Source: Amoebophrya sp. A120
Lineage: Eukaryota; Protista; Dinoflagellata
Direction: 5' to 3'
DNA: 64,000 nt
Assembly (NCBI GenBank): GCA_905178155.1
Contig: CAJINV010000011.1
Coordinates: 1,201,982-1,265,981 of the forward strand
Positions 17,176-59,084 of this stretch are shown here, one piece after another (position 1 is the stretch's first letter; every line of letters begins with the position of its first letter). Under the pieces are notes generated by a model. That model searched no databases and had not been told where the DNA came from. It was given only the letters and a program-made list of their open reading frames with translations. Position numbers and translations under genes: made by a program.

Positions 17176-20100
17176 ATGCAGGAGGCATCCTCGTCGTCTA
17201 CCGCTGCGGAGGAGCAGCTGCTTTTGCTTCCACCGTCGGAATCAACGGGCTCAGTAACTACTGAAAAGAGCGAGGAGTGTGACGGGACGACGACGAGTGT
17301 GAATTCCTCAGAACATCAAGCGTGTGAAGAGTCTGTGGAAGAACGCAAGGCAGCGAAATCGGCTACTAGTAGTAGTAGTACGAGTAGGTCGAGCAGTACA
17401 ACTGCCACTGGGGCTCTCTCTTCATCTTCCGCTACTAGCAATACAACATCTTACGGAAGTTTCGCGCGACGGCCTAGTACACGGGCCGCGTCAGGCAGCG
17501 GGAAATCTTCAAGTAGACCGCGTCGTGAGCCCTTCAAAATAGTGCTGGATCAGTCTCTGTATCTTCCAAGGCACGGCCCTCGTTCGGGAGCAGACTCATC
17601 ACGCGACGCCAGGAGAGCTTCATCAGCGCAAATACACATACCAGAAACAACGCCAAAAGAGCAGGACCGGCATCCGGACCAACATATTCCAGGAGATAAA
17701 AGCACGTTTCCCAAAGTCCGCATCAGCACGGCTTCGTCGCCGGTCTCGTCGACCTCACCCGGAGACGCGACGAGACATAATCTTTCGAGTCGGAAAAAGT
17801 CCTCTTCGCTCCGCTTTCAACCACGGTCTAGGGGATTCACGGCCGAAACGGTGACGTCTGAAGAAGAGCAGGCCGGGAATTCCGGACGCCGGGAGGCTGT
17901 TCCGGGGTCGAACTCACGGCACGACCATCCGGAGCCCGACCTCATTGGGGCGAGCAAAAGTTTTGAGCGGGTGGGGGGAGACACCGGGGTTTTATCTGCA
18001 GTCAAGGAAGAAGTCGTGGTAGCTACGAGGTCGGTGAAATCAACACTGCACAGCTACACGGGCGGCGAACAAAACTCTAGAACCGTTGGCCAAGAACTTC
18101 CTGCGAGCTACCCATCTGCTTCCGTCATCATGTTCGACGCACAGGCGCAGCCGGGGATTCTCACCTCCGATATGGCCTCGTCAACACCGAATATGGTGAA
18201 TCAAGGACCGCTCCTTGTCGCCATACTGAGTGTGTTCATTTTTTGCTTCAACAGCGAGCTACTCCAGGACCTGTCGAGTGAGGTGTCACCCCTCTGCAAT
18301 CTTTGTTGCGCACACATGAGCGGATTGTTGTTTTTCCCGTGGACGAAATGGGCATCGAAATGGAGGAACCGGAATATGCGTTGGCAAAGACCTGGCGGTG
18401 GTGACCACGAGGACACAGCGGGTAGTTCTCCCGTTCCCATTCCGTCACCCGGTGGAGCAGGGCCCGCCCCTTCTCAGGCCGGTGATTCGCAGCAGCAGCG
18501 CCCAGGTGCTGGTGTTGGTTTGCAAGTATCACCAGAACGGGCGACGCATTTGGAGGCTGCTGGGTTACCAAAGCTTCGCGCCGGCGGTTCATCTGGACAG
18601 CACAGCGCGAACAACAAATCGCTGCAAAATAATCATGCTGGAGAACAAGGACATCAGCAGAATCAGCAATATCTTGACTCGCTCTACTCGGATCAGGAGG
18701 AAGAGTCGTCGGTTTCACCGGGCGATTTGTCCCCATCGAGGAAGCGGGGCGATGTGTTCTCAAAATCGGATGTTAAGTTTTGGCAGAAGGCGGCGTTTTT
18801 CTCCATTCTGATCATGAGCTACAACTGGTGCTTTTTGAAAGCGATGGACACGCTGCTCGTGAACACTATGTATGGATCTGTTAGGATTGAAATTGACAAA
18901 GTCGAAAGATTTGTGATGCACAAAATCGATGCCAGTTGGAGCCTCAGTTTCCAAGTGGTGCATGACAAATTTCGGCAGCACCAAGATCCAGTCTGTCATG
19001 CTGTTTGAGCAAAGAACGCTGCTCCTGTTATGCTACTCTGGCAGCACAAGCACATCGCCTTCGCCTAAACAGGCTTGCAATCGGTCTCATATGCCTCCTC
19101 CCCAACGCAGGCCATGCGTGCCCTACATTTTATGCATTACAAATTTTTCGATTTCGTCGATTTCGATCCTGGCACTCCCATAAACACGGTCACGGCTCTC
19201 TACCAGGTGAACGTCGCACTGTGCGGCATTTTATGCATTGCAAAAGTATCGTACTCGTAGTAATTGGAGTCATGCATTACAAATTGCCTTCCCAAGGTAA
19301 AACAGCATGACAAATTTGATTTCTCATGCTGAGCAAATTTGCCATGCGATTTATACTAGTACGATACTTTCGCAAGGCATACATTTTCGAGTACACCCGC
19401 GGACAGGGGTGTACGACGTTCAAGATCAGCGGCACGGTGTTGTGTATGCTAGGTGCAGCGATCGTAGCCTTGTTTTCGCCCACGCGCGGCACCCCCGGCG
19501 ACGATCCGGACGAGGGACCGCGCGGCCACGTCGCGGCCGCCCTGGTGGGATCCTCGTCCGGCACGGGCGTTGCTGCGCACTTCGGGCCGACGGCGGCGGG
19601 CATTGGGTTTAGCATAATGGCCGCAGTTATCCTGTGCAAAAGTATCGTACTCGTAGTAATTGCATTTCTGCATTACAAATCTCTTTCTCAAGGACAAGGT
19701 AAATCAGGAGCATTATAAATTCAATTTGTAATGCTGGGGGAATTTGTAGTGCAATTCCAATTTATATATACTAGTGCGATGCTCGTGCATTGCATAGCAG
19801 TCGGGGCGGCTACTTACGCGTGTCTGCTGGTGGAAATGGTCGGGGTGGAAAAGGTGCGACTTTTTCAGAAAACGATGGTGTAGTTCGTGCTGAATTTAGA
19901 AGAACGGATGATTTCTATTTGTTCTCTTTGGTTATATGTATCAGCCTATTCATCTTCCTTTTCCACAGGCCCGCAACCCCGCCGCCTTCTGTGTGAACTT
20001 TGGTTTTGCGATCAGCTTTTGTCATTTGGTTCTCGTCGTGCCCTTTCTCTTCTTTGCCGACTGGATGCACTGGGAAGAGCTGCGACTCCCGCCCAATCTC

Positions 20101-20646: not shown

Positions 20647-21744
20647 AAATACATAGTTTGAGCTTCCTTTTCTTTACTGAAGTAGTACGCTGTAGAAACA
20701 ATTTTGTATATTCAGGACGTTAAAGTCGATATGAAAGTCTCGTCGACACAATAATTGGAGGTTCGATTTGAACTTCCTCATGAAAATTCAACTTCTTTTA
20801 CCGTGCGCACGTGCGCGCTCGTCGTTGATTCAAGAGTGTAAGTAACAAAACAAGCGCGGAGTTGTATTGTAAAGGAATTTTACGAATTTCAGCTCTGAAG
20901 AAGACACTGACGCTAAACCAAAACTAGCGGCGCAGAGAAAATACCGATTAAGGGTAGACCAACGCGGCTGCCAACCTTTATTAACGCTGCTGCATCAAGT
21001 TAGGTGTGCATCTTCTACATACGAATTTTCAGAATCATCGATGTGTAAAATTGCAACGGACCCCTTTGCTTTTGCATTTGCTGCAGATGCCGCAAGAACC
21101 CTTCCCAATTTCTATGACTCGACGAAATCGAAAACCAATCTTAATGTGGAAGAAGCGCAAAGACCGCCCACGACTTCAAAGTTCGCCGTCGCTGTTGCGC
21201 TTCTGTGGACGACCACCGGCAGACATGCGCTCGCACCGTCCGCAACTCCAAGCACCAGTTGTTCGAAAAAAACAACAACAATAAAACCGATACTGATGAT
21301 TCCACAAAAGATGAACGACGATCCCTTTCCGAACACGACACAAGAAGATCTGGAAACGGCTCTTGCTCCTGCTCCTGCTCCAGATCTTCGACCCTCAACA
21401 AGATGAAGCTGCATCACTTCGTGACAAGGAGGAAATATCTTTATCACCGACAGCGACATCAATTTGTCTTAGATGAAGTTGTAGATGAAGCGCACGATGT
21501 TTATTCACTTCAGATGATATTCATGAAATGATGTCAAGCCACTTCTATGATTTTCTTCGGGTTTGGCAGCGGGGTGACTTTCACGTCCCTTCGCTCTAAT
21601 AACCTTAACCATGACCATGTCGTCAATACAAGAGCGGTAGCGTACGCATAGGCGTAGTTTGATTCCAGTTGTGCCGCTGCCGTCGTTTCTTGTAACGACC
21701 GCGCCGCCCAAGCCCAACAAGAACGACGAACCTCCCAAAGCGCG

Positions 21745-24700
21745 ATGGTTCTCACCCGAGCAGAGCGTAGGAAGCGCACATCAGGCGGCGCAGCCAACCC
21801 ACCTCCAAATGTTAGCGCAGGAGTTGTTCTTGCAGCTCCTGGTGCTGTGTCTGGGGGAGTAGTACTTGCTCAGGGTCAACAAGCGTCCGCATCGGCTTCG
21901 TCCAGAGAGCATTCGCAATCGGGGGTTGCGCCCCCGATCAATGGAGTTGGACAGCAGGGTATGCAGAATGGACGGCCACACGGCAGTGCACCGCATCAAC
22001 GAACCGGCGGCGTGGCTTCATCTGCAGCTGGAACAATGGCTTCGCGCGACCCCACTGTGCATGAGGAAAGGCGTGCGGCCGCAGCACTGGGGTCGTCTTC
22101 ACAACAAGTACAGCATCAGCAACGAGTTCTTGCTCCTGCAGCGCCGGCAACCACGTCCTCGGGGATGTTGGCTTCTGCGCAACATTTCTTTCAGGGAAAA
22201 ATGATGCCCCCACAACAAGAACCTGTTCGTAACAAATCGCCTGCCGCAGCTGGTGCGCCCCCCGCAGGGTTCGTACCGTCCGTTGTTCCGGCTGGTTGGG
22301 AGCGTGTCGAGAGCCGAAATAGACCAGGGCACTTCTACTTCCGAAATCTTGCCACTGGCCAGACGCAGATACAGCCGCCGGTCGTCGGAAATAATAACGC
22401 AGCTTTTCCGATGGTGGTTCATCCCGGACGAGGGCCACAGGTGCAAATATTACCGTCGCACCACCAACCCGCAGAAGCTGTTCTGCCGAATAATGTTCCG
22501 CCATCACCGGATTGGGAGAAGAAGGAAAGTCGGTCTAAGCCAGGGGAGTTCTATTTCAAAAACAAGCGTACAGGGGAGAAGCGTTGGACGGCACCAGAGG
22601 GGTTCTTCAAAGAGGTGCAAGATCCGAGAGGACATGATCCGAAAAACGATCACCGGCAAGAACCGCAAGAACAACCACAGCAGGTACTGGTGGGTACGGG
22701 CCCGAGCGCAAGTTCCAGTTCGGGGAAAAATGCGGGTAGGAGCAGCAACAAGCCGCAGAAGCTTTTCCCTTTTCAGGCAGCAGCTGCACCTGTGGCAGCG
22801 TCTTCATCTGTTACGCCCGGGAGCGGCGGTGCTCTCGTCCATCATCAACCTGTGACAGCCCCTTCACCTGATCCGGGCACCCCAGCGCACGGGCTGCAGT
22901 TTGCCTCTTCCACCGACCGCACGCAACAGCTGCAGTACCAGGAGCAGCAGCAGCACAGCGGGAAAAATCAACCCACAGCTCCGCCAGGTATTCTGAAAGG
23001 GCACCAGCACACTCCTGGAGGCGCTGGTGCCGTTTCCGGACCGCCGGTGTCCAGTACTCGCAAACAGCGGAGGGAGGAGCGCAAAGTGGGTTTCAACTTT
23101 GTGCCGGAACAGAGGCAACAAACAGAGGCAGGTGTTCGTGTTGCTGCGCAAACGCGAAGAGAACATGCTGGAAATTCCGGTGCCAGGCACACGAATAGAC
23201 GATCGCTCGGTGGAAATAAACGGCTTTCCCAAGGTGGTGCTCGGGACAACTCGCAGCGAAGTGGACTTTCCTCGCCAGCAGCATTTCTACCTCCTCCAGG
23301 CATGGGTACTAGTATGGCGAGTCATGGCGACGCTCTTGCGCCACACCATCCACCACGAGGACCAATGCCAGTTGTTGCGACCTCGAGTCACATGGGACTT
23401 TCCCCCGCTCCTTCTTTTCCTGTTCACAATTTCGTGCCACCTGGTGGTACTATTCCCTTTATTCCCACTGGAGCCCACCTCCCGGTTCAGCAGCAACAAC
23501 CATTTGTGAAAGGACAAGCACAACGACCACAAGCGCCACCAGGAGCAGCTTTCGTCGGTCCTGACCCCCACGCTATGCTGAAAGCGCGTGTCCTGGTCGC
23601 CAGTCAGCCGTCAGCACCTCAGCAGCGAAAAAGACCCGCAGTGGAGCAAGCGACCGATAATTCCTCAGACGATACTGGTGCTGCAGCTTCTCTCTCCTCC
23701 TCTTCCGAAGAAGATTCTTCTGACGATGAAGACGAACACGACCTGATCAAGCGCAAACGCATGCTCAATGTCGACAAGCTGTGGCCCCAGGAATTCTCCC
23801 TTAAATCCACCCTCAACGGGACCGCCGCGGCACAACAGAAAGCAAAGCAACTTGCGAATGCGGAAGCGAAAAAGGCGGCGGAAGCGGGGTCCGCGTTGCT
23901 GTCTCGGTTCAAAAACGGCCCCCGGCGAACCCGGGAAAAAAGCGAGTGGGCGCACCAGTACGATTTTACGATCCACGACGAGAAACAGCAGATTTCGTCC
24001 GACGAAGATTTTGGTGTTGGGACGAAACGCGATATCAGGGCTGCGAAAAGAAAGATGAAAAACAAAAACCCGCGGGGGAACAATAAGCAAGCAGATAATG
24101 ATAATTTTTATTCAACAACGGATGGCATCAACCCGGCGCGAGGGGGTCCTCGAGGTCGTGGCAACATCATGCAGCTGGGCGGTAGTGGAGCTGCGTCTGG
24201 TGGTGCGCTTGTAGTTCCGCCTGCAGGCGGTCATCCTGCGGCTCCTTCGGGTAGAAGTTCTGTTGGTGTTCATCTTACAACAGCCGGTGGTCAGCAGCCC
24301 CAGCAGGAAATGCTTCGCCGCGGTTCGTTCAAGCCGTCGACATTGTTCTCCAGAGACCCGCACATATCCGCGCAAAGCCGCAGTTTGTTGCTGGAGCATC
24401 TCAAGGGGCAGATTGCTGCGAGAAAGGCAAGAGGAAATGTTGAGAACAAAGGAAAAGGGCGGAATGGCATCGAAAAGGATCAGGATGAAAATAGGAAGAA
24501 AACCCCGAAAATAGTAATGGCCGTCGAAGTTGAGCACCAAGATGCACCGCAAAACATCGCTCACGTCCTGCAGCAAGCCGCTAAGGAAAATCGTATTTAC
24601 CCATCACTTGCGTGTGCGCGGACTGTGGCGTTTTCTACGAGTAGAAACGGCAACCGGACGGGAGACACGACTTCTACTGCGCCGGGCGTTGTAGCCGCGG

Positions 24701-27700
24701 AATTTATTTTAACCGATAAAGATAATTTGGTGCCGGACTACACAAACACGCGCGTACAGCTGCAGCAACGATTTTTGGGCGGCAAGACACACATGAGCTT
24801 GTTTAAAGGGATGTCGTCATCGTCGTCTGCAGGTTCTAGTGCAATTGCAATTACATCCTCGGTTGTACAGACGGAGATGATGAGCAATCAAGAGCACCAA
24901 TTTGTCCTCGCTCAAAACAACACTTTTGCACGTCTATCAAAATAAAAAATCCCCCCTCCCCATATCGAACAGGAAATTTGTGATGCTGGATTTGCGTACA
25001 CAAATCAGATTTGTCTTGCTGGAGAGGACTGCAGGCCCACATCAAGCCTGAGTACAGAGGTTTTGGCCTAGGCGCTTAGCATGAGAAACGTCTGCGCTGT
25101 AGGCCCAACAGCATCACAGACCGCTTGTATAATACGGCGAAGCCTGTGGAATTGCCTTCTTGCAAGACAGACGTGATTTGTGGTCGCAAATCAGCATTGC
25201 AAATTTTCTGCGCCGTACCTTTTCGATATGGGGAGGGGGGATTTTTCCTTACGATAACGTCCCGACGTGGATCATGCGTCCAGCATCCAGCACCTGGACG
25301 CCGAACATCAAATAAATCTTCGGTCTGGCGTCTCTATTTTCGGACCTGCAGAACGTATGAGGTCCTCAGATGTGAAGTTTCCAATTTTTCCAAAAAAAAA
25401 ACTATCGATGCATAAATAACTATGTAGTTCAGTAGCTAGCTAAGGTGGAGCGGTTTCAAGGTCTCCGGCTGCGTCTCGTAACGGCGATCCGGCATCTCGG
25501 CGAAGCAGGAGCTGGCCATTTGTATGGAGTTTTGAAAATCCTAGTGAGCGAGCATTGAAAAAGCAAATGTCTGATGTGGTTCCCTAATACATGACTCCAG
25601 TAGTAGCGGTCTGATGCACAATCGTCGACGAGATCGGAGAAATCTAAGCTCTACACGGCTCTTACGGGGCACAAATAGGGGTCCTGGAAAAAGGTTGCTC
25701 ACAAATGTCTAGGATCAGTATCTGATGGCGCCGCTCGCTCGATGTGCTCTACGAATACGACCCGCCACGGCTCTCAGAGTCGGCTCTTTCATGTTGTTTC
25801 GATTTACGATATTCCGATCAGGCTTGCACGTAAATTTCGAACGATACGCTCAGGTCGATGCTCTTAGTTTCTAGGCAACGAGCGTTCCACATTGCTGCTT
25901 CTTATTCACAAATCCACATTCTCATCAACCACAGGATCCTCGTCTTTGCGCCCATGCTCACCTCCCTCACCGCAGGTCGTACAGAAGCCGAAATAGAGGA
26001 CAAGGACTGTAGCGACGGCTTGGCGACGAGACCGTTCCGAGATACGCAGCCGGAGACCACGCAACCGCCCTACCTGAGCTAGCTAGTTCATGAGATAGAT
26101 ACTAAATTACCTAAAGTAGCTAGTTTTTTTTTTCGATTTTGTTGAAATTTCACATCTGAGGACCTCATAGAACGACTAAACCTTCGGTCCGCCGTCTCTA
26201 CTTTCGGACCGATCCTCCGGTTTCGGTCTGCCGTACTGAGTGGAAAACTTCACAAATACAAATATCTGCAAAAATTGGTCTTTAGAGGCTTCACGGCTGC
26301 TGGGAGGGGGCCCAGGGTCTGCGAAACGCGACGCCGGTGAGTCGAACACCAGCACGGCAACAGCGCGCGGCGTTGTTCTGTCCGGCAAGGTCCGGAGGGT
26401 TTGGCGTCGCTGAAGGCCATACCGGACGACGACGAGCATGCATGTACTTCAAGAACAAAATCGGAAGGCTGTTGCCTTTCCTTTGTGTCGCGTCCGCCGA
26501 TGCGGTTTGTCGTTTAGCCCGTGATTGGAGCAAAAAAACGCTATTCCCACTTGGAAACTTTCCACAAATGAACAGACCCGACCCCTCCGGAGACCCACAA
26601 ATCTGGGGCCCTTCTGAACAGCCAAATTCCCACTTCCCGCTTGGAAACTTTCCACAAATGAAAAGGCAGGGGGGTCCGGCGACCCCTGCCGGAGAGGTCG
26701 CCCGCGAGCATTTTTCTGCGTCATTTTGATGCGATTTCCGCCTTTCGGCGATTCGCCGCGACCTATTACTGCCTCCGCCGGCGCCGCATGGCGCCGGAAT
26801 TCCGGGCACCCTGGCGTGGCCCCGAGAGCCCTAGTCCCGCCCTGCTAAGCGGCCCGCGCTGGTGCGACTTTGGTCGGGTTAAATGGCGACCGCCTGAGAT
26901 GAATGCTCTGGCGCCCCTCCCAAGGATGCCCGACAGGGCCTGAATTGCTGAAAAGCATAACACTGGGCGCCTGTTTCTCTGCAGTTCTGCCTTTTAAGCA
27001 TCAATTTTTGCAGATATTTGTATTTGTGAAGTTTTCCCCTTAGTATGCCGTCTCTATTTTCGGACCGATCCTCCGGTTTTGGAAGGACCAGCGAAGACTC
27101 TATCACTACCATCTCACCTACTTGCAGGAAACTCGAAAGGCCCGCTACGCCGCTACGCTGCAGGAGAAACTCGGCCAGAAACTCGCCTCCACGGACGGGG
27201 CGAAGCGGATGCGACTGCGGTTCGAGAACAATCTGCCCGTCGCGCTCGCCCAACCGAAAATGCGCTCTCCGCTGACGTATCAAATGTAAAAATGTCTGGG
27301 TGGTCTGGAAGAGTGCATTTTTGTCATGCTTGTCTGGCATGACTGTCAAATCTCTCATGCACGTTACCCAAGAGCACCACTTTTCTGTCATGCAGAAACG
27401 CAGTTCGCCATGCAGAATAGGCAACACCTAGAAGCTCAGAAACTTGTGATGCTGAGCCAGCATTTCTGGCCTCATCATGAGACGCCACCCAGCATCACAA
27501 GTTTCCAGACCCAGACATTTTTACATTTGATATGACGCTGTGCGAACTTTGCTGGAAGACCGCGGTGTACAAGGATAAAAAGACGAAGCAGCCGGTTTGC
27601 AGCCAGAACTGCCAAGTGGCGTTGCAACTGTACCGAGACCCCATGGGCCTGGAGAACGACAAGTACGGGGGGAAAGGTGCAAACCAGGCTCTGTGGAAAA

Positions 27701-27726
27701 AATACGTCGAGGGAAAAGACCTGTGA
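21745..27726 (+). CDS. Large protein with two WW domains and a C-terminal HIT/YL1-like Cys cluster; exons approx. 21745-24934, 25262-25355, 26175-26233, 27051-27277, 27538-27726
   Basis: WW motifs PAGWERVESRNRPGHFYFRNLATGQTQ and PDWEKKESRSKPGEFYFKNKRTGEKRWTAP. C-terminal LCELCWKTAVYKDKKTKQPVCSQNC. The frame is continuous after removing four introners. Confidence 0.78.
24935..25256. mobile_element. TIR introner, family C (322 bp)
   Basis: TATC...AAAAATCCCCCCTCCCCATATCGAA and its reverse complement at the right end; TSD ACGTC. Confidence 0.92.
25356..26169. mobile_element. Large TIR introner D (814 bp)
   Basis: TATGAGGTCCTCAGATGTGAA...TTCACATCTGAGGACCTCATA; TSD GAACG; an additional subterminal inverted repeat TAGCTAGCT..GGTCTCCGGCTGCG. 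Confidence 0.92.
26234..27045. mobile_element. Large TIR introner E (812 bp) with a GC-rich core
   Basis: TACTGAGTGGAAAACTTCACAAATACAAATATCTGCAAAAATTG and a near-exact reverse complement ending CCCTTAGTA; TSD TGCCG; internal direct repeat CTTGGAAACTTTCCACAAATGAA twice. Confidence 0.92.
27278..27532. mobile_element. TIR introner, family F (255 bp)
   Basis: TATCAAATGTAAAAATGTCTGGGT...ACCCAGACATTTTTACATTTGATA; TSD TGACG. Confidence 0.92.
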
Positions 27727-27784
27727 AGAGGATGGCACGATGGATATTCATCATTACTTTTTATATGCTTTTGCGATATGTTCA

Positions 27785-28121
27785 AATGTTGTTGTGCAAT
27801 TCTGTGCGCAAATCAGCGGAAAACGTTGGGTAAGAGTTCCCGACGGAGACGGAAGAACCTACGAAACGGAAGAAGAGAACCCGGCGCGTTTCCAGATACA
27901 ATGGGAGGCCTTTTGCGAACACTCAGGCAAGGAGGAGGCGTGGGTAGCAGGCCTACTATTCACAAAAGAGGAGGGAGAGTTGTGGGTTGCCGCTTGAGGC
28001 GAGACAGTCGATGTCTCGAGGAAAGAATCGCTTGTGTGTACATCCGAGAAAAGAAGATTTGACGAAAGAAAAGAAACAAATTTTACACCCGGATAGACAC
28101 GTAATGAATGAATGAATGAAT
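27785..28121 (+). mobile_element. 5'-truncated non-LTR retrotransposon 3' end with an (AATG)n tail
   Basis: Encodes ISGKRWVRVP...FCEHSGKE..WVAG...LWVAA*, homologous to the C-terminus of ORF 17-754. Tail AATGAATGAATGAATGAAT at 28103-28121. TTGCGATATGTTCA is duplicated at 27771-27784 and 36367-36380. Confidence 0.78.
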
Positions 28122-28691
28122 CGCAAATAAAGAACCACGATAATGGAATTTTACAATCGACCGAGAGAAGTAGAGAGAACAAAGGGCACAGACATTGTGG
28201 GCGGTGAGCAGTCGCTCTCGATAAGCATTCGCTTACTGTTTTTATTTTTTCTGCCGTCACATTCTCCAATGAAGGTGAGTAGCGCCACCTCCCTCTGAGC
28301 TTGCGACGAGTGTCTCCGACCTGTTGGTGATCACTTTTCCTCGATGTTCAGTCACATTTGTCGAGGCTGTCGTAGACCTGTTGGTGAAGTTCTCAACAGG
28401 TCGGCACATTTTTGGCCGGTCTTGAGCGTCCCAGGAAAGTGTTTTACATCTCATTCGAGAGAAAACGCAAGTTCTCCTGCAGCTTGCAGTCGCAAGCGGT
28501 CCACGCCTAGGACAAGGGTCATCTATAGAGTTCTATTCTACGCAGAGAGAGAGATTGTAAAATCGCAAATAAAGAACCACGATAATGGAACTTTGCAATC
28601 GATCGAGAGAAGTAGAGAGAACAAAGGGCACAGACATTGTGGGCGGTGAGCAGTCGCTCTCGATAAGCATTCGCTTATTGTTTTTATTTTT
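28119..28691 (+). repeat. Split direct repeats A1 - spacer - B1/A2
   Basis: A1 and A2 are ~131 bp with 4 mismatches seen by eye. B1 (167 bp) abuts A2, overlapping at AAT. Confidence 0.93.
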
Positions 28692-28727
28692 CCCACCCTC
28701 GATCAAGATCGTTCCCTCCCTGACAAA

Positions 28728-30197
28728 ATGGACTCACTTCGTGCCGCACAGCACAGCTCGTCCTCCGCGGCAATGGCGCAGCGGATCCTCGCAAGAAGAC
28801 GAGCCGCGTCAGCATCAGTGCCACCGTCATCAGCATCATCTTCGTTTTCCCGCCCTCCTCTCCCTCAACATCAGCGGCAGCGAAGCACATCTGACTTCAC
28901 GAGTGCACCATACCAGAAGACCCAGCTAAGTGAGCCATCGTCATCTTATGGGAAAGATGTGTTCTCAGCCGCAGTTGCTGCATGCCATGACTGCGAACTA
29001 GCAACGGAAGGCATCATTGCCGACCCCGCGAGCAGCAAGAAACCCCTTAAGCCCGGACTCTTCTCAGAAGTCGCTTCTCACCCAAAAATTCTACGACTAT
29101 ACAAGGACGCAATGGACCCGAGCAAACAAAAAGTCACGAAACAAAAAGAAGAAGTTTTTTCTCTTCTTGACGACAAGTCGCGGCACCAGGCAGCAGTCGA
29201 GAAAATGGCGAAACGTCCAGCAAATGCCACCGAGGGCGCCAGGATGAAATGTTATTTTCAAGTCTGCGAGCGAGCCAGCCAGCATCCTGAGTTAGAATTC
29301 CTCCGCAAACCATGGCCCATCACCCGAGCACATGCAGTGCACTTCTTCACTGCGCTCGTGGGAGATAGCGACGACTCCAGTACTTACGCTACTGCAGATG
29401 ATTATCTGTGGAGCGTAATTGGAAGGCTTGAAGCCATTCCAGGCGGAAGCAGCCTCGGAGTCGCAGACAAGACACACCTGTCACAGTTGGTGTCGCGCCA
29501 AAAACGCACCGGGAAATTCAATCACTCCCAGGCCCCGCCGGTGATGCTAGCCGAGCTCACCGAGTTAATGCGCCCGATCAATAAACGGAAACACGAATTC
29601 GGTGCTGCCTGCGGAATCGGGTTCCTGTTCGGGTTACGAAAAGCAACACTCCTGTCCAAGATCTCCTTCGGTGGAGACGACATTCCACATTGCTGCGAGG
29701 ACATCCCCGATTCACCATCGGATTTTGAAGATGGAGGTGATCTAGATGAGGCTATGCAGGTTGTTCATCTGACCTCGAGAGCAAGTAACACATGCGTGCC
29801 TTTTTCGGGAGACTTCAGTTTTAATGCTGCGGCAGGAGTTTTCTGCCTTTCTCTCGAAAAATATGTGTTGAAGTCGAATTATATTCGTCGAGTGTATGTG
29901 AAGTGTTTGTGCGGTACTGCACTTGATTGTTTGTGCCCACACAAACTTATTCCGCTGCTTTCGCACCCGCAGCACGATTGGCGAAGTGAATTCTCTTCTG
30001 ATTTTCTAGCCTATTTTGGTACTGGACGTACCCAGTCGTTGCGCATAGGCTGTCTACAACAATTAATGAGTTGTAAGATAAGTGCAACGCGCATAGGCTG
30101 TCATTTACGATGGCGCACGGAGAATATGAAAGAGTATTATAACCGCGGCAATCAATATGCGGCCAATCCTTACAAAGAACTCAACTTCATCCCGTGA
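28728..30197 (+). CDS. Tyrosine recombinase of the retroelement
   Basis: GFLFGLRKATL (catalytic R), TQSLRIG (HxxR position, Q for H), HLRW, and MKEYY (catalytic Y) near the C-terminus. Confidence 0.8.
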   Translation: MDSLRAAQHSSSSAAMAQRILARRRAASASVPPSSASSSFSRPPLPQHQRQRSTSDFTSAPYQKTQLSEPSSSYGKDVFSAAVAACHDCELATEGIIADPASSKKPLKPGLFSEVASHPKILRLYKDAMDPSKQKVTKQKEEVFSLLDDKSRHQAAVEKMAKRPANATEGARMKCYFQVCERASQHPELEFLRKPWPITRAHAVHFFTALVGDSDDSSTYATADDYLWSVIGRLEAIPGGSSLGVADKTHLSQLVSRQKRTGKFNHSQAPPVMLAELTELMRPINKRKHEFGAACGIGFLFGLRKATLLSKISFGGDDIPHCCEDIPDSPSDFEDGGDLDEAMQVVHLTSRASNTCVPFSGDFSFNAAAGVFCLSLEKYVLKSNYIRRVYVKCLCGTALDCLCPHKLIPLLSHPQHDWRSEFSSDFLAYFGTGRTQSLRIGCLQQLMSCKISATRIGCHLRWRTENMKEYYNRGNQYAANPYKELNFIP

Positions 30198-30536
30198 CTC
30201 AACCAATTCACTCAGACCAACAGCACGGCATTCGCATTCGCGCCGGCAGTCCGCTCGTGAGAATTCTCTCAGTTGGCATTCGCCTGCTCTTGCCTAGTCA
30301 GACGCGCCGAGAGTCTCATTACATTCAAACTGCAGTCTGTTGAGAGTCCAGAGTTATTCTCTCACAAAGCATTATCTACCGAGCGAGTCACGTTCAAAAT
30401 TCACTCGAGAGAAGCCAAGCAGTATCAGGAAGTGGCCCTCTTACGAATGCTGGAGAGAGAAAAAAGTTTCTGACTCAGCTCCCTTCATCATTTCGCAGTC
30501 ACTCTCCAGAAGCTAGAAAACTCGATCAAATTCAAG

Positions 30537-32994
30537 ATGGCTCTCAACGCAGGAGCCTTTCAGCAGGTCGGCAATGGCTTGGGGCCGCAAGCAGGAGTAC
30601 TCGGTGGAAGTGCCGACCCGCTGTTGGCCGTGGTCCCGCCCCAGTTACAGGTGAACCCGAAAGCAAAGGCCAAGAACAAAGCCGGTCCCCCGCCGCCGCC
30701 CAAAGCGGTCACTCAACCGGTCGGCGCAGTCCAACAGCCCCATGCTCCGAAAGCCCCTGCTCAAGGTCTCGCTGCCATCGGGAATCCCAATGCCAACCCC
30801 CCGGTTAACATCAATGCGGGCGTCAATCAAAACCCGGGCACCCCGGCGAATGGGAACAACGCGGCAGGTGCAGCGGCAGGAGGCGGCGCAGTCGCGGGCG
30901 CGCAACAAGCCGCAGTCGCGGGCGCACAGCAAGTCGCTGGCGCAGCAGGAGGCGCAGCCGCAGGAGGAGCTGCTGCAGGCGCGCAGCAGCAAGCGGGAGC
31001 GGCTAATCAGCAGCCAGGAGCGCAACAACAAGTTATTCCCGCCGGTCAAAACAACGGACAACAAGTCGCTGCCCAGGCCAACGCCAATAATCAGGTGCAG
31101 CAGCCACAAGCCCCCATCGCGAATCAACAGCAGTTGAACCAGCAGCCGGCTGCTGCAGCGGCCGTGCAGGCGCAGCAACAGTTACTGGCACAGCAGCAAG
31201 CTGCTGCAGCGGCGGCGGCACAGCAGGCGCAAGTGCAGCAGCAAGCTGCGGCAGCAGTCGCTGCCCAGCAAGCGCAGCAGCAGTTACAACAGCAGCAACA
31301 AGCAGCTGCGGCACAGCAAGCGTTGCAGCAAGCACAGGTCCAGCAGGCCCCGGGTGCAGCGATTGCACCAGCTGCCGTAGTCCAAGGACCGGGTGCCGCG
31401 CAAGTCCTCCCGAACGCGAATGTAGCTGGCAACAATCAGCAGAATATAAATCAGAACGCGGCTGCTCCACTGCAAATCAATCCACCAATTCAGCAGCAGT
31501 TTCCGGCCCCCGCCCCGCCGGGGAACCAGAATCAGCAGCAGTACGCGCAGGCACCGGGCGGTGGTGCAGCCCCACCACCAGTTGGCGCACCACTCGGAGG
31601 ACCAATCCCAGCACCATTCGGTCCGGTCCCCCTTGGCGCGAACTTGCAACAGCCGGGCGCAGTCCCCATCTTCCCGCAGATGCCACCCATCAACGCGAAT
31701 TTCAACTGGCAGGACCAGCACGCGCAGATGTATTTCCAGCAACTTTATTACCAGAATCAGCTGATGGCGCAGCAGAACGCCAACATGCAGGCGATGATCC
31801 AACAGCAAACTACGATGTCGCAAGGAGTAACTGGTTTGGCGGAAGCCTTCCCATCTGCAAACGATCCGTGGCACCCCGACGCCCCGATGACCGCTCAGGA
31901 ATCTACCGCGTTCGCGAATGCAATCAACCATCTTCCCCGGTCGGATCGGATTTTGTTAGAATCATTCAAGCAAATCTCTGCGATGGTACGGGATAAGACC
32001 CTCCACCAATCCGCGAACATCGGAGTAAAATACTCGTACAAGAATCAAGCGCAAGTTTCTGATGTCAAGACCACCAAGACAACTACACCAAGCAATGCGT
32101 CCTTCGACGCTCTTGCGGCACCTCGCAATCGGCGGAAAGCAGCCCCCGGTCTTCGAGTCTCCGGCCGAGGCCTACGAGCTGGTATTGCTCATGGACGATC
32201 ATTTCCGGGCGATTCCAGAATCTGCTTCCCAATCGGAATGGGAATCGATCGCCACGTCTAAGCTCTACGAGGTGCTGGCGACTTCGGCGGACAAACTCGC
32301 ACCGGCCAAGACCTATTTTCACGACGGCGTCGCGATCGAGACCAGTTACCAGGAGCGTGCGCGTGATTATTTCATGCTCGCCGACAACGACGCTTCTGGT
32401 TTTCGTTTCCAGATGCAGCAACTCATGAACGTGTCGCATCAAACAGCAAACATGTTTCACAACTCCACGTTCCGAGCCATCCTCAACATCCCGGATACTT
32501 CTTCTTCCTCCCGCATTCCCGGCCGTGACCGTTCGCCGCGCCGTGAAACATCTACGCGTGCAGAATTAGTCGCCGAAGGAAAGTCCTTGAAGTACTGTTG
32601 GCATTACATGAAGTGCACGCCGTGCGAAAATCGCACGAAAGTCATCAACGGCTGCGTAGAATGCGACAAGGGCGGGAAGCATCCTTCCAAGAAGTCACAG
32701 TTAACCCGTGAACAGTTTAAAGCGATCAAAGCTACCCATTTGGGGAAGCAAGCGCTGTCGAAGATCGGGTATTTTGATTGGATGGGCGGCTCTATTTACA
32801 AAGGCGATAACATCTCCAAGTACTTTCCGGAGCGCGAGTCTTCTTCCACAGCAAAAAGCAAGGGAGGAAAGAAGGGGAACAAGGGGAAGAAGGGGAAGAA
32901 GTCTCCGCCAGAAGTAAAAATCGACCAGTCCGAAGACGAGAGTAATCATTCCGACAACAATGACGACAAAAACGAGAAGCCAGATGATAAGTGA
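30537..32994 (+). CDS. Gag-like protein (Q/A/P-rich N-terminus, Cys/His cluster, basic tail) split over two overlapping frames (30537-32261 and 32062-32994)
   Basis: Lies between YR and RT. The second frame contains YCWHYMKCTPC...CVECDKGGKH. A frame change is needed between 32029 and 32261. Confidence 0.6.
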
Positions 32995-33660
32995 AGTGAT
33001 TCCATCGCTACTGTTTTTTGTGTCCGCGTTTTGCGTTGACAAAAAAGTTTTTAGAAAATCAACTTAAAATGAATCTCGCCTTACATTTATACTCATTGTT
33101 TCATCAAATAGTTATCATCTCTCGTCAGTGTTATCAATCTTGTTTTTTGTCAAATGCAACCCCAAGCACTCTATACGATTATTTACATATTTTTCCACGA
33201 CTTTCCATGTCTAGCAGTATTCCACTGCCTGTTTTCCTGTCACAGGAGCGCCTCATGTTTCCATAAGTGCATTCGCACTCTGGTGTTTTTCACGCCACCG
33301 CCTTTCCAGTCGGAAAGCACAGCCCATTCGACCGTCGCAATTGCGATTCCCCTCGAAGAGGGCATGACTTCACGGACAATCAGCTTTCCATTCGAGTAGC
33401 AGTTGCTACTCTATTTCCATGAAGTCAACCTATTCTATACTTTCTTTTCTAGTACGCTGCAGAAGTCGCAGTATTTTCGGCGCGCGTCGTGTTTGTCCTC
33501 ACTGTTTGTCTGTCGTCGTCGTCTTAGTTCCGAGAGACACGTCGAGTGAGGGAGTCACAGGGAGTGGACCTCGTGGTCACGAAAGGAAGAGCGACGTTGC
33601 TAGATTTTTCCTTGCGCCTCGATATCGATATGACCTTTTCGTAATCAACTAGCGTCCACG

Positions 33661-36033
33661 ATGAGCAAAGTTTGCCTTCCCCCGCAAGGGGAGTTTTACG
33701 ACGATCCCATCCCGCAGTCAGACCAGAACGACTACTCCAAAAAGTGGAAGGAGATGCTTTCGCGGATTGGTTGCGACAAACGGAAGCGTTCTCCATTTTC
33801 CCCGCTCAATTCTGAGTTCCTCGCAGTAGACGCGACTAAGTTGTCGACCGTGGATATTCGCGCGGAAATTGATGCAACTAACGCTGCAGCTGCCCCGCGT
33901 GATACACGATTGAAGTCATCGATGTGCGACGAGGTTCGGAAGTTCCACGGGAAATACAACGTCGGGTTCATCGACATGGTCCTGGAGAAGGCTAGTTTCA
34001 ATGGCCGCGCAGTAGTGAAGGAGGTTCTGGCACAGGGAGGCACCTGTATTCGGGATTGCAAAGCCCCCTCCGCATGGGGTGCTCCATCAACTCGGCGTAA
34101 GCCATGGTTTTCGACCACGGAGCCCCCGCACAACCTCGCCTCGTACAAGCCCGGCACCCCGCCTCCGGATTGGTCTGAAGCTCACATTCGTGAGATTTAC
34201 AGGCAGACCGAAGAGGAGACCGAAGTGGAGCCGTTGTTGGGGCACGCGCGATTGGCCAAGAGCATCTCGTACAGACAAGCGAAAAAGGCGGGGTGGAGCC
34301 ACGTGTGGCGTCGTTTCTGTGTCGAACAGAAGACGAAAATTCGGATGATCGACCCCGCGTGCGCTTGTAATTCGCGCAGCGATCTGTCGAAGGGGGTCCC
34401 GATGGGCTCGGCCCATGAAATCTTGGGCGCGTCCGCGGTCTTGCGTGACCCGTCGTTACGCGAGCAGAACTACGTGTCGCTGACCCGGAAGACAGTGAAG
34501 GCCGGACGGTCCTTGGAGAAGAAGTACGAAGATGCGTTCGTCGCTTTCGTCGAGTCTGGGACGCCGATACCGGACGAGCTGAAGAAACCGCCGAAGCGGT
34601 ACCACGACTCAGTCGAGTCTGCTCAAGTGGCCGCCGGCTATCCGCATCCCAAGCGCCAAAAATTCGCCCCCGGGCTGTTGGTCGCGTTGATGATGCTAGT
34701 GGTTGACGTCCACAAAGCGTACAACACCATCGCCGTCCGCCCGTCGCACAGGAAGTGCAACAGGTTGTGCGTCTTCGACCTGGACAGGATGGCTTACAGG
34801 TTCTACGAGGCGCTGACCCTCATCTTCGGGAACGTCCATAGTGTCGTGTGTTGGGTTCGGGTTTCCATGGCATTGAAGTGCGTCGTGGTTTTCTTCGTCC
34901 AACTGATGCTCAGCGTGTACGTCGACGACTTCGCTTCCCCCGTCCCTGAAGCAGTTGGTGACAAGGCGAAGGACCTCGTGCTGTACCTATTTCAGATCAT
35001 GCGGCTCGGCATCCACCCGAACAAGGTGAAGCTGGAGAAGGTCACCGAAGTCTTGGGCTTGGTGTTTGATCTGGCTGCCGACACGCCCGAGTTTTTTGTG
35101 TCCATGCAGCGAGCGAACAGCATCACTTCCATCATCGATACTGCCCTCGCTTCCGCCTCGCTCCCCACCGACGTAGCAGAGTCGCTACACGGCAAGGTGA
35201 TGTTCTGCCTGTCCGCATTAGTGGACCGCCGTTACAATCCAGTCTTGAAACCGTTGGCGCAGTTCATCCACCTCCCGCAGTCAGGAGGTGCCGCATTTTC
35301 CGACAAGGTGAAGCAGTGCTTGCACAACATCAAGCTCATCCTTGCGGCCAACTTGAAGAAACGTCCTGTGTTTGAACGACCGGAAGATGACAACCTGCTT
35401 TTGTACACTGATGCTTCGTACAGCCACGGTTCGGGCTGGCACTCGGCCGTTTTTGTTTCTGCTGGGAAATTGTATGGTCGATTTCTACGTGTAGTTGAAT
35501 CTGATTTGTCATCTTCGGTTCCGATCAAGCATCCCATATCGTTCCTCGAAACGGTGGCTCCGGTGGTCGCAGTGCACGAGTTTGCGAGCGTCCTACGGCC
35601 GAAGAGTCATTTCCGGTTGTCAGTCGACAACGACAGTGCGAAGAATGCATTCTTGAACCAGAATTCGCCCAAGCAGCACATGGCCACGATGGCGCTATTC
35701 TTCTGGTCGTCGTGCTCCGCGCTGGCCTTGTCGCCATGGATCGACCGGGTCCCGACGGGATTCAACGTGGCGGACATTCCCACTCGTCCCAGATTCCTGT
35801 TCTACATAATCTCCAATTTCCCAGGGGCTTTCGAAGAGATGTGTGACTACTCGAAATCATCGATTTTGATTGCGCGAAGCGCCATGAAGCTCGAGACACA
35901 TGCAAAGTTCGGTGAGATCCCTGGCGTTTCCATGAGTCAGTATCACGAGCCCACCAAGTGGTGCAAAGCATCAGAGAAATTCATTCGAGTTGACACATCA
36001 CGATCGGACATAGTTTTTGATGACATTGTATAA
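33661..36033 (+). CDS. Reverse transcriptase / RNase H (DIRS-type)
   Basis: RT motifs VDVHKAY, LIFGNVHS and YVDDF. RNase H motifs LYTDAS, ISFLE, VDNDSA and NVADIPTR. Confidence 0.95.
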   Translation: MSKVCLPPQGEFYDDPIPQSDQNDYSKKWKEMLSRIGCDKRKRSPFSPLNSEFLAVDATKLSTVDIRAEIDATNAAAAPRDTRLKSSMCDEVRKFHGKYNVGFIDMVLEKASFNGRAVVKEVLAQGGTCIRDCKAPSAWGAPSTRRKPWFSTTEPPHNLASYKPGTPPPDWSEAHIREIYRQTEEETEVEPLLGHARLAKSISYRQAKKAGWSHVWRRFCVEQKTKIRMIDPACACNSRSDLSKGVPMGSAHEILGASAVLRDPSLREQNYVSLTRKTVKAGRSLEKKYEDAFVAFVESGTPIPDELKKPPKRYHDSVESAQVAAGYPHPKRQKFAPGLLVALMMLVVDVHKAYNTIAVRPSHRKCNRLCVFDLDRMAYRFYEALTLIFGNVHSVVCWVRVSMALKCVVVFFVQLMLSVYVDDFASPVPEAVGDKAKDLVLYLFQIMRLGIHPNKVKLEKVTEVLGLVFDLAADTPEFFVSMQRANSITSIIDTALASASLPTDVAESLHGKVMFCLSALVDRRYNPVLKPLAQFIHLPQSGGAAFSDKVKQCLHNIKLILAANLKKRPVFERPEDDNLLLYTDASYSHGSGWHSAVFVSAGKLYGRFLRVVESDLSSSVPIKHPISFLETVAPVVAVHEFASVLRPKSHFRLSVDNDSAKNAFLNQNSPKQHMATMALFFWSSCSALALSPWIDRVPTGFNVADIPTRPRFLFYIISNFPGAFEEMCDYSKSSILIARSAMKLETHAKFGEIPGVSMSQYHEPTKWCKASEKFIRVDTSRSDIVFDDIV

Positions 36034-36200
36034 GAGTTTGAAGTATACATTCTGCGTTGCAAGATTCGCGAGTCACGCGTTGCTTACTTATAGTATGACC
36101 TAGGCTGTCAGTTCACGCGATGAGCTATACACAGCTTTTGGACGCATTCCAGGTTCCTGTGTTTTGGTGAAAGTTCTCGCCGAGCGCGCACGCTCAGCAC

Positions 36201-36367
36201 CAGGTCGGCACATTTTTGGCCGGTCTTGAGCGTCCCAGGAAAGTGTTTTACATCTCATTCGAGAGAAAACGCAAGTTCTCCTGCAGCTTGCAGTCGCAAG
36301 CGGTCCACGCCTAGGACAAGGGTCATCTATAGAGTTCTATTCTACGCAGAGAGAGAGATTGTAAAAT
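36201..36367 (+). repeat. Right terminal repeat B2
   Basis: Appears identical to 28397-28563 over 167 bp. Confidence 0.95.
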
Positions 36368-37070
36368 TGCGATATGTTCATGTTGAATATATGCGCCGTG
36401 TAATAGTGACGAACGCCGCGAGTACAACGCGTAGTAGATCTGAAGTCAAAGAAGCACAACTTCGACGAGGCTCCCGCTCCTGGATGGTGCGAGATGACAG
36501 ACGCGATGCACCACCATCGCAAAGAGCCAGAAGGAAAAATGGTCTATATCTGCCTTTACCGGAATCATCCTTGTCGGCTGTTGTATCGTGTCATGTTCAA
36601 CAAGTAGTCGTCCCTGACCCTGGAGTTATAGAGAGACCGTGAGCAAACGCAAACCGCACGCGTTCGGATTTGGAATTGGAAGCTTTAGTTATTTGCATGA
36701 CTGAGTAGAAGAGGTAAAAGTACTTACGTTGCTCGGTGCTTATTTTCCACTACCACACTGCACAGGTAGTCTCCTGCCTCTTTCTTTCATTATGGTTCGT
36801 CTTCGTCTTTTCGTGGTAGCGGTTTTTTGCTTCATCTACATTTTCAAAGAAGCACCCATAGCAATAAACCTCTGGTAAATAAAATTAGCCACGAAGAGGT
36901 GGGCGATCTACGGCCGCATGTAGAAGTTTGTGAAACTGAATGAAATACTGCGAAAGCACTGATGAAAGAATTTAAATTTCCAAGAAGAAATCTAGGACCT
37001 TGTTTGCGGCCTTAGTCGTGTACTTCTACGTGTACCTGATTTTTGTTTTTCAGTTTGTGAAATAAAAATA

Positions 37071-41759: not shown

Positions 41760-44055
41760 CCATGTTAACCATCCACGAGGAGCACGAGTCCGCATGGACG
41801 GGGATCGATTTTCCGTATTATGCCTACTCGTCTTGTTCGTCAGTGTCGCTCTCGTCAGCACTGCCCTGGCGCACCAGCCAGAGTTGTCGATACCAGCCAC
41901 TAATATCACGGCGAGGCCCGACATGTCAACATCTGCAGTCAGGAACAACAAGCCGAACAAACTGTGCAGCCACTGCTTTTGCAGGGAACAATCCGACTGC
42001 CCCCCGGGCGGCTGCGATACATGGACAGCATCCCCAGAGCGTATCGCACAAAGACCAGGCGTCCAGCTACACAACCTCCGGCGGGGAAATGTTGACCTCG
42101 AAGAGGGCGGAGACGTCGTTGCGCGGCGCCACGAGCACATTTTGGAAAAGCAACGCCGAGTGGAACAACGGGGGTCACTCTGGCAGCATCGAGGCGCGTC
42201 CACGTCGAGGTCGACGTCGTCACGGAGGGCGGCATGAGCGGTTCCGTGCTTCCCGTAGTTCCACCGCAGGTGCAAAAACTTCGCAAAGCCATCAGCATCA
42301 GAGTCCGGCTGCCATGCGCATTTCATTCAGCGGCACGACCGACCGAGAGAAGCCGGGATTGGAGGCACTCTCGCGGCAGGCACTTCTCCGCCGCCAAGAA
42401 CTGCAGCGCGAGCGGTTTCCTTTTCCGTTCTCGGTCTCGGCCAGTTCCCTTTCTCAATCTGCTGGTATGTAGTTTTTTTATGTATAAAGATGATCTCGGT
42501 ATTTCTATTTCTGGCACGATCGCTGTTTTTTTTCGGTTTTGCATGAGCGGAGAGACGTTTAAATCATGGTTCGGAACCTCCCAATAGACTAGCTCACCGG
42601 AAAATTTTGGTTGATTTCACTGGGGAATGATTTTCGTTTCCGGGCACCTGAGCGCGTCCGACACCTCTACATCGCCGGGCAACCGCTACGCCGCAGCACT
42701 GCGGTACTGGGAAAGGGGTGATATTTCAGTGAAGTCTCACTTTTTCCAGAGTCTCACTTTTGGGCGCCCAAAAGTGAGATTTCTCAAAAAGTGAGACTTC
42801 AGTGAAGTCTCACTTTTTCCAGAGTCTCACTTTTGGGCGCCCAAAAGTGAGATTTCTCAAAAAGTGAGATTTCAGTGAAATCTCACCCATTTCCCAGTGC
42901 GGTACTGGGCTCCAGTGCGGCACTGGAGCCCAGTATCACTTTTTCCAGAATCTCACTTTTGGGCTCGAAAGTGAGATTTCTCAAAAAGTGAGATTTCAGT
43001 GAAATCTCACCCATTACCCAGTGCGGCACTGGGAAACGGGTGTGATTTCAGTGAAATCTCACTTTTTCCAGAGTCTCACTTTTGGGCGCCCAAAAGTGAG
43101 ATTTCCCAAAAAGTGAGATTTCACTGAAATCTCACTTTTTCCAGAATCTCACTTTTGGCGCCCAAAAGTGAGATTTCTCAAAAAGTGAGGGCATTTTTAA
43201 GAGTGTGCATGTAGTGCGTAGGCACAGGAGTTGGCCGCTTTGTATTATTGTTATTGTATATGAGTCGTAGTGGTATTGGTAGGAGATCAAGATCATGGCC
43301 CGCGCAGCCTTTCGCCTCTGTTGACCGCGCAGCATTTCATTTGTATGGGGCATTTATGAAGCAGAGAGCGCCAAATTGTGTAGGTGCTAATGTGAAGTTT
43401 AGCCGTTTTCGCCTCCCAGTGTTTTGCAGAAAAATTTTCCGGTGAAGAGGGGGGGGCTTTTCCGATCCATGGCTTTAAATGGATATCCATCTCAAAGTCT
43501 AACCAGTTTCTGTTTTCATGCAAGTTTTTCGCTAGTATGCACGATTTTCAAAAAGGAAACGCATTAACATTTTACAAAGCGGAAGCGGCCGCGATACCCC
43601 CCCCCCCCGCCAACGAGCAGCCTCCACTCCCTACGGGGGCGCCGCTGTGGAGGGTAGACCGCTGCCCAGCAGACCTCGGAGGCTTGATCAGCCCAAGCTG
43701 CCTGGATCCAGTGCCGTCGTCCACTTCGTCAGAGAGCGGAATAGGCACGTATACGACTCTTGGCCATGATGGCAACTTGAGTCCGTTTGCCACGATCGGC
43801 GGCGTAGCAGCTACATACCACGAGGGGCACGAAGAAGTTGAAGTAGGAGTCGGCGTTAGAAGCGGTCTCTCTAGCCCTGCCACCGGATTGCTCCCACGTC
43901 CGTCCTCGCCTTTTTCCGAGGACGAACCCGCTTTATTTCTTCTGCCACCGGCTTGGGGTTCGGGCTTCTCCAGCGCTGCCAGTAGCACCAGCGGTGACTC
44001 GAGCTCAACGCAAGACCTTCCAGTCCTTCGCCATTTTCGTCGCCGGCCGCGATGA
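41760..44055 (+). CDS. Possible hypothetical gene, exons ~41760-42464 and 43580-44055 (start uncertain)
   Basis: A GTATGT donor at 42465 and an ACAAAG acceptor at 43579 join ORFs 41579-42472 and 43537-44055 in frame. No recognisable domain. Confidence 0.3.
42539..43523. mobile_element. Foldback-like element: degenerate long TIRs enclosing a palindromic minisatellite
   Basis: Perfect inverted repeat TCACCGGAAAATTTT at 42594-42608/43431-43445, plus outer matches TTTAAA.CATGG.TCGGAA and TTGCATGA. Confidence 0.6.
42690..43189. repeat. Array of ~73-bp self-complementary units
   Basis: About 5 copies built around the palindrome TCTCACTTTTGGGCGCCCAAAAGTGAGA, interspersed with CCAGTGCGG(T/C)ACTGG hairpins. 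Confidence 0.95.
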
Positions 44056-55828: not shown

Positions 55829-56259
55829 GTGCTGGGAGATGAATGGCCGCGATGCATTCATTTTTGAATGGCCTGGAATGAAATAAAGTGGACTTCTCGT
55901 TTTCCAATCTTGAGTATTAAGCCCGATCGAGATCCAAATAAGAGCAAATAATTTTTGGCAATTTCAATTTAGAAAATAAAGAAAACGATAAGCGACGAAA
56001 ATCTAAGTAGCGACTTTCAAATCTGATTTCTGAGCCCATGGAAAGTCAGACAGTATAGATGGGTGGTACATCATGGACGTCACCATCATCATACGAATAG
56101 ATACGAAAGTATACACATCCGATATGGAGGAGAATACCATCGGACGCCTAATTTTTACCCATGGGAAGCCAGAATGCGCCGATGCTGGTAGCAAATTTCA
56201 TTTCGTCTCACGTAGCTACTTGCGGTGTTCTTGTGTTTTCCGGACGACAAACTTCTTTT

Positions 56260-58350: not shown

Positions 58351-59084
58351 GGCTTTGCCTTTGCGTATATACTACGTACTCAGCTGCAGCGACGCTCTGT
58401 CTGTTCTTTGTTTGTACAGGAAAATGACAATGAGTGTGATCCGTCATTCTCATTGCAGCTAGGCTCTGCCTCGCGTAGATGTACTGTACTTGGTTAGGCC
58501 CAACCCCATGGCCGATAGGGCGATTACCCCCGCCGAGGTCAGGGATAGCGATCACCCGAATCCAGGTCTTCTCCGTCAGGTTCCTTCGTATTATTGGCAA
58601 CCAGTTAGAAAGACCAAGATCTACTCCTATATATTCATGCTGTGGCTCGTGTTGGTCCTAGTAGTTGGTCAAAGATCGAAGCCGTTGCAGTTGAAGTTGT
58701 ATATATGATTGTTCAGACTTCTGTTCGCAGCAAGAAGTCACTGCTCTGTTTGACTTTATCTTGGCTGTATTTTCACAGATCCTAGGGAAAGGTGAAGACC
58801 AGAACTTCCTCGCCAAGAAAGATTTCTTGTTGCGCAACAGTCTATCACTCTGGATATGGAAGGCTGGAGGCGAAGGCGCCATGATATAACTACAAGCTTC
58901 GCAAGAACAAGAAGTCGATAAAAAGATACAAAAAAAGAATATGCGGAGTCCACGTCGGGATATCTTCGTCAGTTGCAAGCCGCCCGTTTAGTTTTACCTA
59001 TTGCCCAAGAGCTGCAGTAACTTAAAAACGAAAACCTTCTAGACACTCACGTTAAAATAAAGTCACTATATCAAGCACACCATC

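Follow-up and report, generated by a model that had tools for sequence, protein, structure and literature searches.

Among retrotransposons with a gene for a tyrosine recombinase (YR), the Ngaro-like elements (PMC8547959, PMC3783388, PMC9210276; here and below, published systems are described from the covered parts of the cited papers) offer a close comparison for an element in a 64,000-nucleotide stretch of Amoebophrya sp. A120 (contig CAJINV010000011.1; hereafter the window). Both combine a YR with reverse transcriptase and RNase H (RT/RH), split repeats A and B, an overlapping junction between these repeats and the lack of a methyltransferase. Ngaro elements, however, are laid out as A1-ORFs-B1A2-B2, with their open reading frames (ORFs) in the order gag, RT/RH, YR, whereas the window element (28119-36367) reads A1, x, B1/A2 junction, YR, gag-like ORF, RT/RNase H, B2, with the junction before all ORFs and the YR in first place. 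Neither the Ngaro repeat order (taking the repeat phase as assembled) nor the Ngaro ORF order is found here. As read from its sequence, the element would appear to work like Ngaro and PAT elements, yet it lacks two of the features by which Ngaro is defined. We consider it likely that this single-copy YR retrotransposon was inserted as a circle with two B/A junctions, probably opened by its YR at the junction behind RT.

A YR placed before RT/RH is also seen in the VIPER/TATE elements of kinetoplastids, which further resemble the window element in their split direct repeats, in lacking a methyltransferase and in having a short A-B derivative, SIRE (PMC6681497). They differ in host and in running gag-YR-RT/RH, with A1 followed by B1, A2 and B2 at the 3' end, an arrangement that the window element does not share; the odd orders reported from Bodo saltans (A1,A2...B1,B2 and A1...B1,B2,A2), doubted by their own authors, differ from it as well (PMC6681497). 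SymbioDIRS-Dnmt3 of Symbiodinium shares a host of the dinoflagellate lineage, split repeats and a divergent RT poorly matched by Pfam, and its YR has an ORF of its own, with YR and pol shuffled in their order in its two forms, but it is laid out as A-coding-B-A-B with a DNA methyltransferase (DNMT) within pol, which the window element does not have (PMC5890265). In the PAT-like elements Pat1 (nematode) and Kangaroo the junction lies between methyltransferase and YR, and so need not lie at the 3' end; a methyltransferase domain is present in these elements, their ORFs flank the junction on either side, and in Kangaroo the YR is inverted (PMC4157794). By contrast, no methyltransferase follows RNase H in the window element, which gave no Dam or DNMT match in Pfam and, in none of its six frames, a [ND]PP[YFW], F[AS]GxG or GxPC motif. 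It does have marks of the DIRS order, namely a tyrosine recombinase and a pol ORF that joins RT to RNase H, and, as in Ngaro-like elements, split direct repeats A and B.

A movable junction and a YR before pol have thus been partly described already. On the other hand, no junction upstream of all ORFs was found in the literature searched, a search outside which lay the original Kangaroo and PAT papers, a 2015 review and Repbase. The same literature yielded no description of DIRS elements in Amoebophrya; the element is not described in the covered parts of PMC12130899, PMC12477816 and bioRxiv 10.64898/2026.05.21.726589, and a search of the supplement of PMC7789003 gave no hit. In keeping with the first-pass annotation of this DNA, no prior family with both this ORF order and this repeat layout was found in the literature searched.

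All features of the element lie on the + strand. Repeat A1 (28119-28249) forms the left end and begins with the letters AAT, the core shared by both ends of the element and by the internal junction; it is followed by a single-copy spacer x of 147 nt (28250-28396), whose 3' end contains a hairpin and is similar to the sequence preceding B2. Repeat B1 (28397-28563) ends in AAT, and through these three letters it overlaps repeat A2 (28561-28691), making the internal junction; repeat B2 (36201-36367) forms the right end, again with AAT as its last letters. The two B copies are identical over 167 of 167 nt, with a single mismatch immediately 5' of them (28396/36200), and the two A copies, 131 nt each, differ at four sites (A positions 31, 35, 43 and 118). 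Self-BLAST E values are 4e-58 for the A repeats and 1e-83 for the B repeats, the A-x-B segment measures 445 nt, and neither the rest of the window nor the spacers between the ORFs (339 and 666 nt) hold a further copy of A or B. Taken singly, A, x and B fold in an ordinary manner (z -0.3, -0.1 and -1.7), while the hairpin region (28300-28420) gives z -2.6; the element analysis returned no Rfam family or tRNA, and no spliced-leader relic was seen. These coordinates bear out the annotation's placement of the B/A junction 5' of all ORFs, as well as its order of YR, gag and RT/RH on one strand, a single public contig spanning all the ORFs. Its observation that B1 and B2 are identical also stands, but the young insertion drawn from it does not follow from identity alone: copying should, we infer, make the B copies alike in any case, and the gag-like ORF has a frame change.

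The site of insertion can be rebuilt because a 14-nt duplication belonging to an older insertion brackets both flanks, one copy at 27771-27784 and the other at 36367-36380, immediately 3' of B2. The window holds these two copies of the 14-nt sequence and no other, with ~1.5e-6 occurrences expected in 400 nt. The left flank (27785-28118) is a 334-nt stretch ending in (AATG)n that is multi-copy in sequencing run X1, with variants up to depth 250; it is probably what remains of an older retroposon, truncated at its 5' end and flanked by a duplication of its own. The element would have entered the tail of this retroposon at an AAT, host DNA being neither lost nor duplicated, and the flanks would have been contiguous before insertion. 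The element carries AAT at each end and in the junction, its empty site can be rebuilt, and it has no target-site duplication of its own, as in integration through a short junction core. This agrees with the integration through a three-letter circle junction described for DIRS1-like elements (PMC3266345, PMC7192593), among which AAT is the commonest junction trinucleotide in the table rows listed (PMC3266345). As to the retroposon itself, a Trp-rich open frame (27536-27997) without a credible Pfam match overlaps it, and run X8 holds a related copy with the same tail end in a different context.

In the mechanism that we propose, a transcript running from the first 30 nt of A1, 5' of the first difference between A1 and A2, to B2 would be reverse-transcribed, and the ends of the cDNA would be rebuilt on the internal B1/A2 junction to give a circle, B/A1-x-B/A2-ORFs, with two junctions. 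The YR would then cross the AAT of B2/A1 with an AAT of the host, opening the junction behind RT. More tentatively, an inverted repeat of 11-12 bp across this post-RT junction may mark it, either as a recombinase site or as a stem in single-stranded nucleic acid. A copy permuted in this way would retain everything that the cycle needs and could therefore be heritable. The first-pass annotation had likewise proposed a circular intermediate integrated through its other B/A junction, and this is borne out in part: the shared AAT, the rebuilt empty site and the repeat in a related fragment (below) speak for it, while the phase of the repeats is taken from the assembly.

The inverted repeat was recognised in the last 11 nt of B (28553-28563 in B1; GATTGTAAAAT), which form a perfect inverted repeat with 28148-28158 in A1. 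The longest inverted repeat is thus 11 bp for B/A1 but only 5 for B/A2, because two of the four differences between A1 and A2 fall in the A2 arm (28590-28600). A related broken fragment, L001 (2473 nt, starting within RNase H), aligns with the 3' region of the window element at a score of 370, as against at most 84 in shuffles. It carries a perfect 12-bp inverted repeat in other letters ~480 nt past its RT match, the left arm ending, as in the window, in AAAAT and the right arm preceded by the same GATAAnnGA. In 2000 shuffles such a repeat arose in none, any 11-bp repeat in 28 and the motif in one, for a pattern that was itself defined from the comparison of L001 with the window. The post-RT junction therefore appears, from sequence, to carry a perfect repeat in both; integration has parted its arms in the window, whereas in L001 they still stand together. 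The window's phasing fits with this, as it too places the perfect arm behind RT. It is because the repeat is perfect for B/A1, broken for B/A2 and kept with other letters in L001 that we propose it as a junction signal. L001 itself may be canonical with longer repeats, a tandem or a stray piece; its RT fragment follows immediately on what looks like an exon of a host gene for RNA binding, RRM-like by eye (488-1060 and 1068-2060).

The first ORF (28728-30197; 489 aa) encodes a tyrosine recombinase with a fold that, as modelled, is Cre-like. It has no Pfam match, but a profile search returned 48 relatives, and an AlphaFold2 model built with 24 sequences reached a pLDDT of 84.8, an earlier model from three sequences having reached only 39.9. 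Among solved structures, the best Foldseek matches of the model are Cre recombinase (E 5.9e-4), and the Atlas assigns the protein as a tyrosine recombinase with a score very close to its maximum; sequence searches of the PDB gave nothing useful, and Phage_integrase matches in four of the 24 scanned relatives all fell under the cut-off. R304, K382, R439 and W462 are invariant or almost so in the alignment, with Tyr at 470-471, and these are residues of the catalytic type; H459 and the pair Q436-x-x-R439 complete the set. Gln replaces the His of the HxxR motif here and in six of the 48 relatives (His in 26, Tyr in one, no call in 15, by a crude tally). A dead YR was considered as the meaning of this replacement and rejected, the same Gln being present in close relatives; HxxR is also known to vary (PMC3266345).

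The second ORF is putatively named gag from its position and a Cys/His cluster. It comprises two frames, a point absent from the first-pass annotation: frame 1 (30537-32261; 574 aa), rich in Gln and Ala, whose tail weakly matches the gene model P0027 (E 0.015), and frame 2 (32029-32994; 321 aa open), with the Cys/His cluster and a basic tail, which finds its match in the C-terminal half of P0027 and likewise of P0028 (E 5e-11) and whose homologues adjoin the YR in relatives. The change of frame falls in the overlap (32029-32261) and is present in the public contig too; it may be a mutation, an intron or a programmed shift, all of which are compatible with it, and the 140 candidate GT-AG pairs that could bridge it do not discriminate. 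There is no Pfam match to this ORF, the Atlas returned only unnamed clusters, though with high confidence, and a search of its second frame against longer proteins found none of 2600 candidates relevant.

RT/RNase H (33661-36033; 790 aa) carries the motifs DVHKAY, YVDD and YTDAS ... NVADIP, and its frame, like that of the YR, is open. It has 11 relatives, ten of them at 30-48% identity; eight of ten aligned RT proteins match RVT_1 (best 9.7e-8), and two of the ten weakly match RT_RNaseH. The nearest distant RT/RH is P0011 (1006 aa; a cluster of ENA/JGI proteins), at 23% identity and 99.2% in HHalign, where the match begins past its N-terminal 400 residues; it sits on a long branch in a quick tree that covers only the relatives and the P0011 cluster, with no named reference RTs. 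The N-terminal region of P0011 shows cytosine-methyltransferase-like motifs by eye, a point of likeness to SymbioDIRS-Dnmt3, with no such match in Pfam. Ahead of each of the three ORF starts stands a pyrimidine-rich tract and then AG (28650-28727, 30450-30536 and 33570-33660), an arrangement that would suit separate trans-splicing of three spaced ORFs. Raw RNA runs X4 and X5 gave no match to the element or its right flank, which is uninformative as to expression, and two short identical RT pieces in run X8 (depth 3-11), whose RNA nature is only guessed, are not counted as expression.

Having the YR first is a trait of the whole family in Amoebophrya, as judged from gene numbers and gene models of the relatives, not from their DNA. 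The named close relatives come from Amoebophrya A25, A120, AT5.2 and Ameob2. In A25, the YR N-part (CAD7925134, gene number 13707), the YR C-part (CAD7925136) and the RT (CAD7925140, 13710) follow in that order on a contig whose length is the same for each, the RT three gene numbers past the YR N-part; in AT5.2, YR and RT lie two gene numbers apart in two of three linked pairs (g12545/g12543 and g7577/g7575). Gene models P0027 and P0028 fuse the YR in front of a homologue of the second ORF, and a single transcript contig of 7557 nt contains both YR and RT. Beyond these, none of 59 candidates from viral contigs and one of 104 from a metagenome scan proved related. The suggestion that YR-first marks a distinct lineage accordingly holds in that the order is lineage-wide in Amoebophrya models, but it is not wholly new, given the shuffled YR and pol of Symbiodinium DIRS. 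That the order arose from reading across an end repeat was also considered and rejected, there being no repeat between the ORFs and one contig spanning them.

How far the repeats can be phased depends on the sequencing data. One independent public contig matches 28648-36230 with 0 differing letters and 0 gaps, and it is for this reason that the ORF order and the gag frame change are taken as real. Depth in run X1, a run that may have been the source of the assembled window, is ~41 over the body, 73.6 at the 167-nt B node and 70.3 in the junction bin, where 68.4 is expected; B at about twofold depth and x at onefold indicate two copies of B and one of x. The contigs connect A1 with the left flank and B with x, with RT and with the right flank, and they break exactly at the repeats.

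Several observations weigh against the reading that we prefer, a permuted element opened behind RT. A single locus underlies the layout, the element being single-copy and with no complete relative available. The assembled order and a swapped, canonical A-ORFs-BA-x-B have the same k-mers for every k to 75 and can be told apart from k=76 onward, so that k=31 contigs are unable to phase the repeats; the canonical order accounts equally well for the public contigs, and no read was seen that links A1 in phase with x. As to the inverted repeat, one of 11 nt was reached in 2 of 3000 shuffles but also at 14 of 1722 window positions, and the fall of two of four differences inside the arm has p ~0.04, both statistics being after the fact; its 26-nt spacer across B/A1 exceeds those usual for recombinase sites. 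Past the arm, L001 bears no likeness to A or x (an equal score is reached in 53 of 200 shuffles), and its remaining 410 nt show no second B. The gag frame change may mean a dead copy, and in the third AT5.2 pair (g19530/g19529) the YR and RT numbers are adjacent. Finally, cDNA of DIRS-1 is mostly linear and single-stranded, and a circle junction was not amplified from it (PMC7192593).

The repeat layout described in the annotation is indeed present in the window; what was overlooked is that a local assembly swap, exchanging the segments between the interleaved repeats of a truly canonical element, would yield the same short k-mers. Every split-repeat element in the literature covered has ORFs before its internal junction, as the canonical order would, and L001 may be canonical. 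Yet phasing requires crossing only 74 identical nt, the window continues without N through longer multi-copy repeats where k=31 contigs break, and the perfect inverted repeat behind RT in L001 matches the window's phasing and not the swapped one; we think a swap unlikely. The annotation's own alternative, a 445-nt A-x-B unit in tandem with an A-ORFs-B unit, could have arisen by successive insertion of a mini-circle and the larger unit at the same AAT, or by recombinase rearrangement in place. Solo AB units in Cafeteria and SIRE, the A2-B2 of VIPER, have been described (PMC8547959, PMC6681497), and the two A copies are not identical, 4 of their 131 sites being different. This alternative is weakened by the depths in run X1, which leave no room for other near-identical mini-units; the single-copy state of the element likewise argues against a mini-unit family, the B copies are identical, and two events at one site would be required of a single-copy family. 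We accordingly regard it as quite improbable. We give very little credence indeed to the idea that the layout is real but an ordinary rearrangement of a dead copy, uninformative on integration: the gag frame change and the single copy would suit it, but both ends fall exactly on the junction AAT, the flanks are contiguous, and the YR and RT frames are open.

Opening of a two-junction circle behind RT, then, remains our preferred reading. Whether the permuted form is the family's standing layout or one of two coexisting openings we judge to be about even: if the perfect arm is a recombinase site, one would expect the permuted form as a rule, with L001 as an exception, whereas if it is a stem used in copying, canonical parents would be the rule and the window copy an alternative opening. 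A larger proposal, which we hold tentatively and rate at rather less than an even chance, is that of an undescribed Syndiniales YR-gag-RT lineage whose circle can be opened at either B/A junction, both permutations then being present in genomes, and the choice being biased by a covarying inverted repeat around the AAT that serves as recombinase site or as a stem in single-stranded form. The circle model predicts two equivalent B/A junctions, while the literature covered reports one opening only, and at the time of PMC7192593 the specificity of the DIRS recombinase had yet to be tested. An element copy that was opened at the other junction, and has a perfect repeat on the junction used and a broken one on the junction unused, would offer a direct test of recombinase recognition. 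If opening at either junction is true, it would provide genomic evidence for the two-junction circle and the first candidate att site for split-repeat elements; the layout, if real, would show how such elements choose their opening and insertion site. For annotators, the ends of split-repeat elements can be misplaced, and the element adds a YR-first family from parasitic alveolates.

Elsewhere in the window, a 255-nt insert (27278-27532) has perfect 24-nt terminal inverted repeats starting TA; its copy number in run X1 is extreme (summed bin depth >500,000), and in raw RNA run X4 it also occurs, with other surroundings. Many more inserts with inverted repeats, likewise starting TA and resembling introners or MITEs, lie at 4809-5115, 6394-6672, 19344-19665, 24935-25256, 25356-26169, 26234-27045, 53210-53370 and 59211-59515, of which those at 4809 and 59211 look related, and 25417-26101 is nested within 25356-26169. 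Such inserts resemble the introners described for Amoebophrya (PMC7789003), and together with the named close relatives of the proteins they point to an Amoebophrya-like host. A GC-rich island at 56001-58500 (0.685 in 56001-58000) holds a 637-aa frame on the - strand and a 313-aa frame on the + strand, neither with a Pfam match, and ~48-nt palindromic units stand head to head and in tandem at 42697-43189. Of two host genes, that at 62790-63716 shows Tsr1-like ribosome biogenesis domains, and that at 21658-24945 a 1095-aa frame with a weak WW match.

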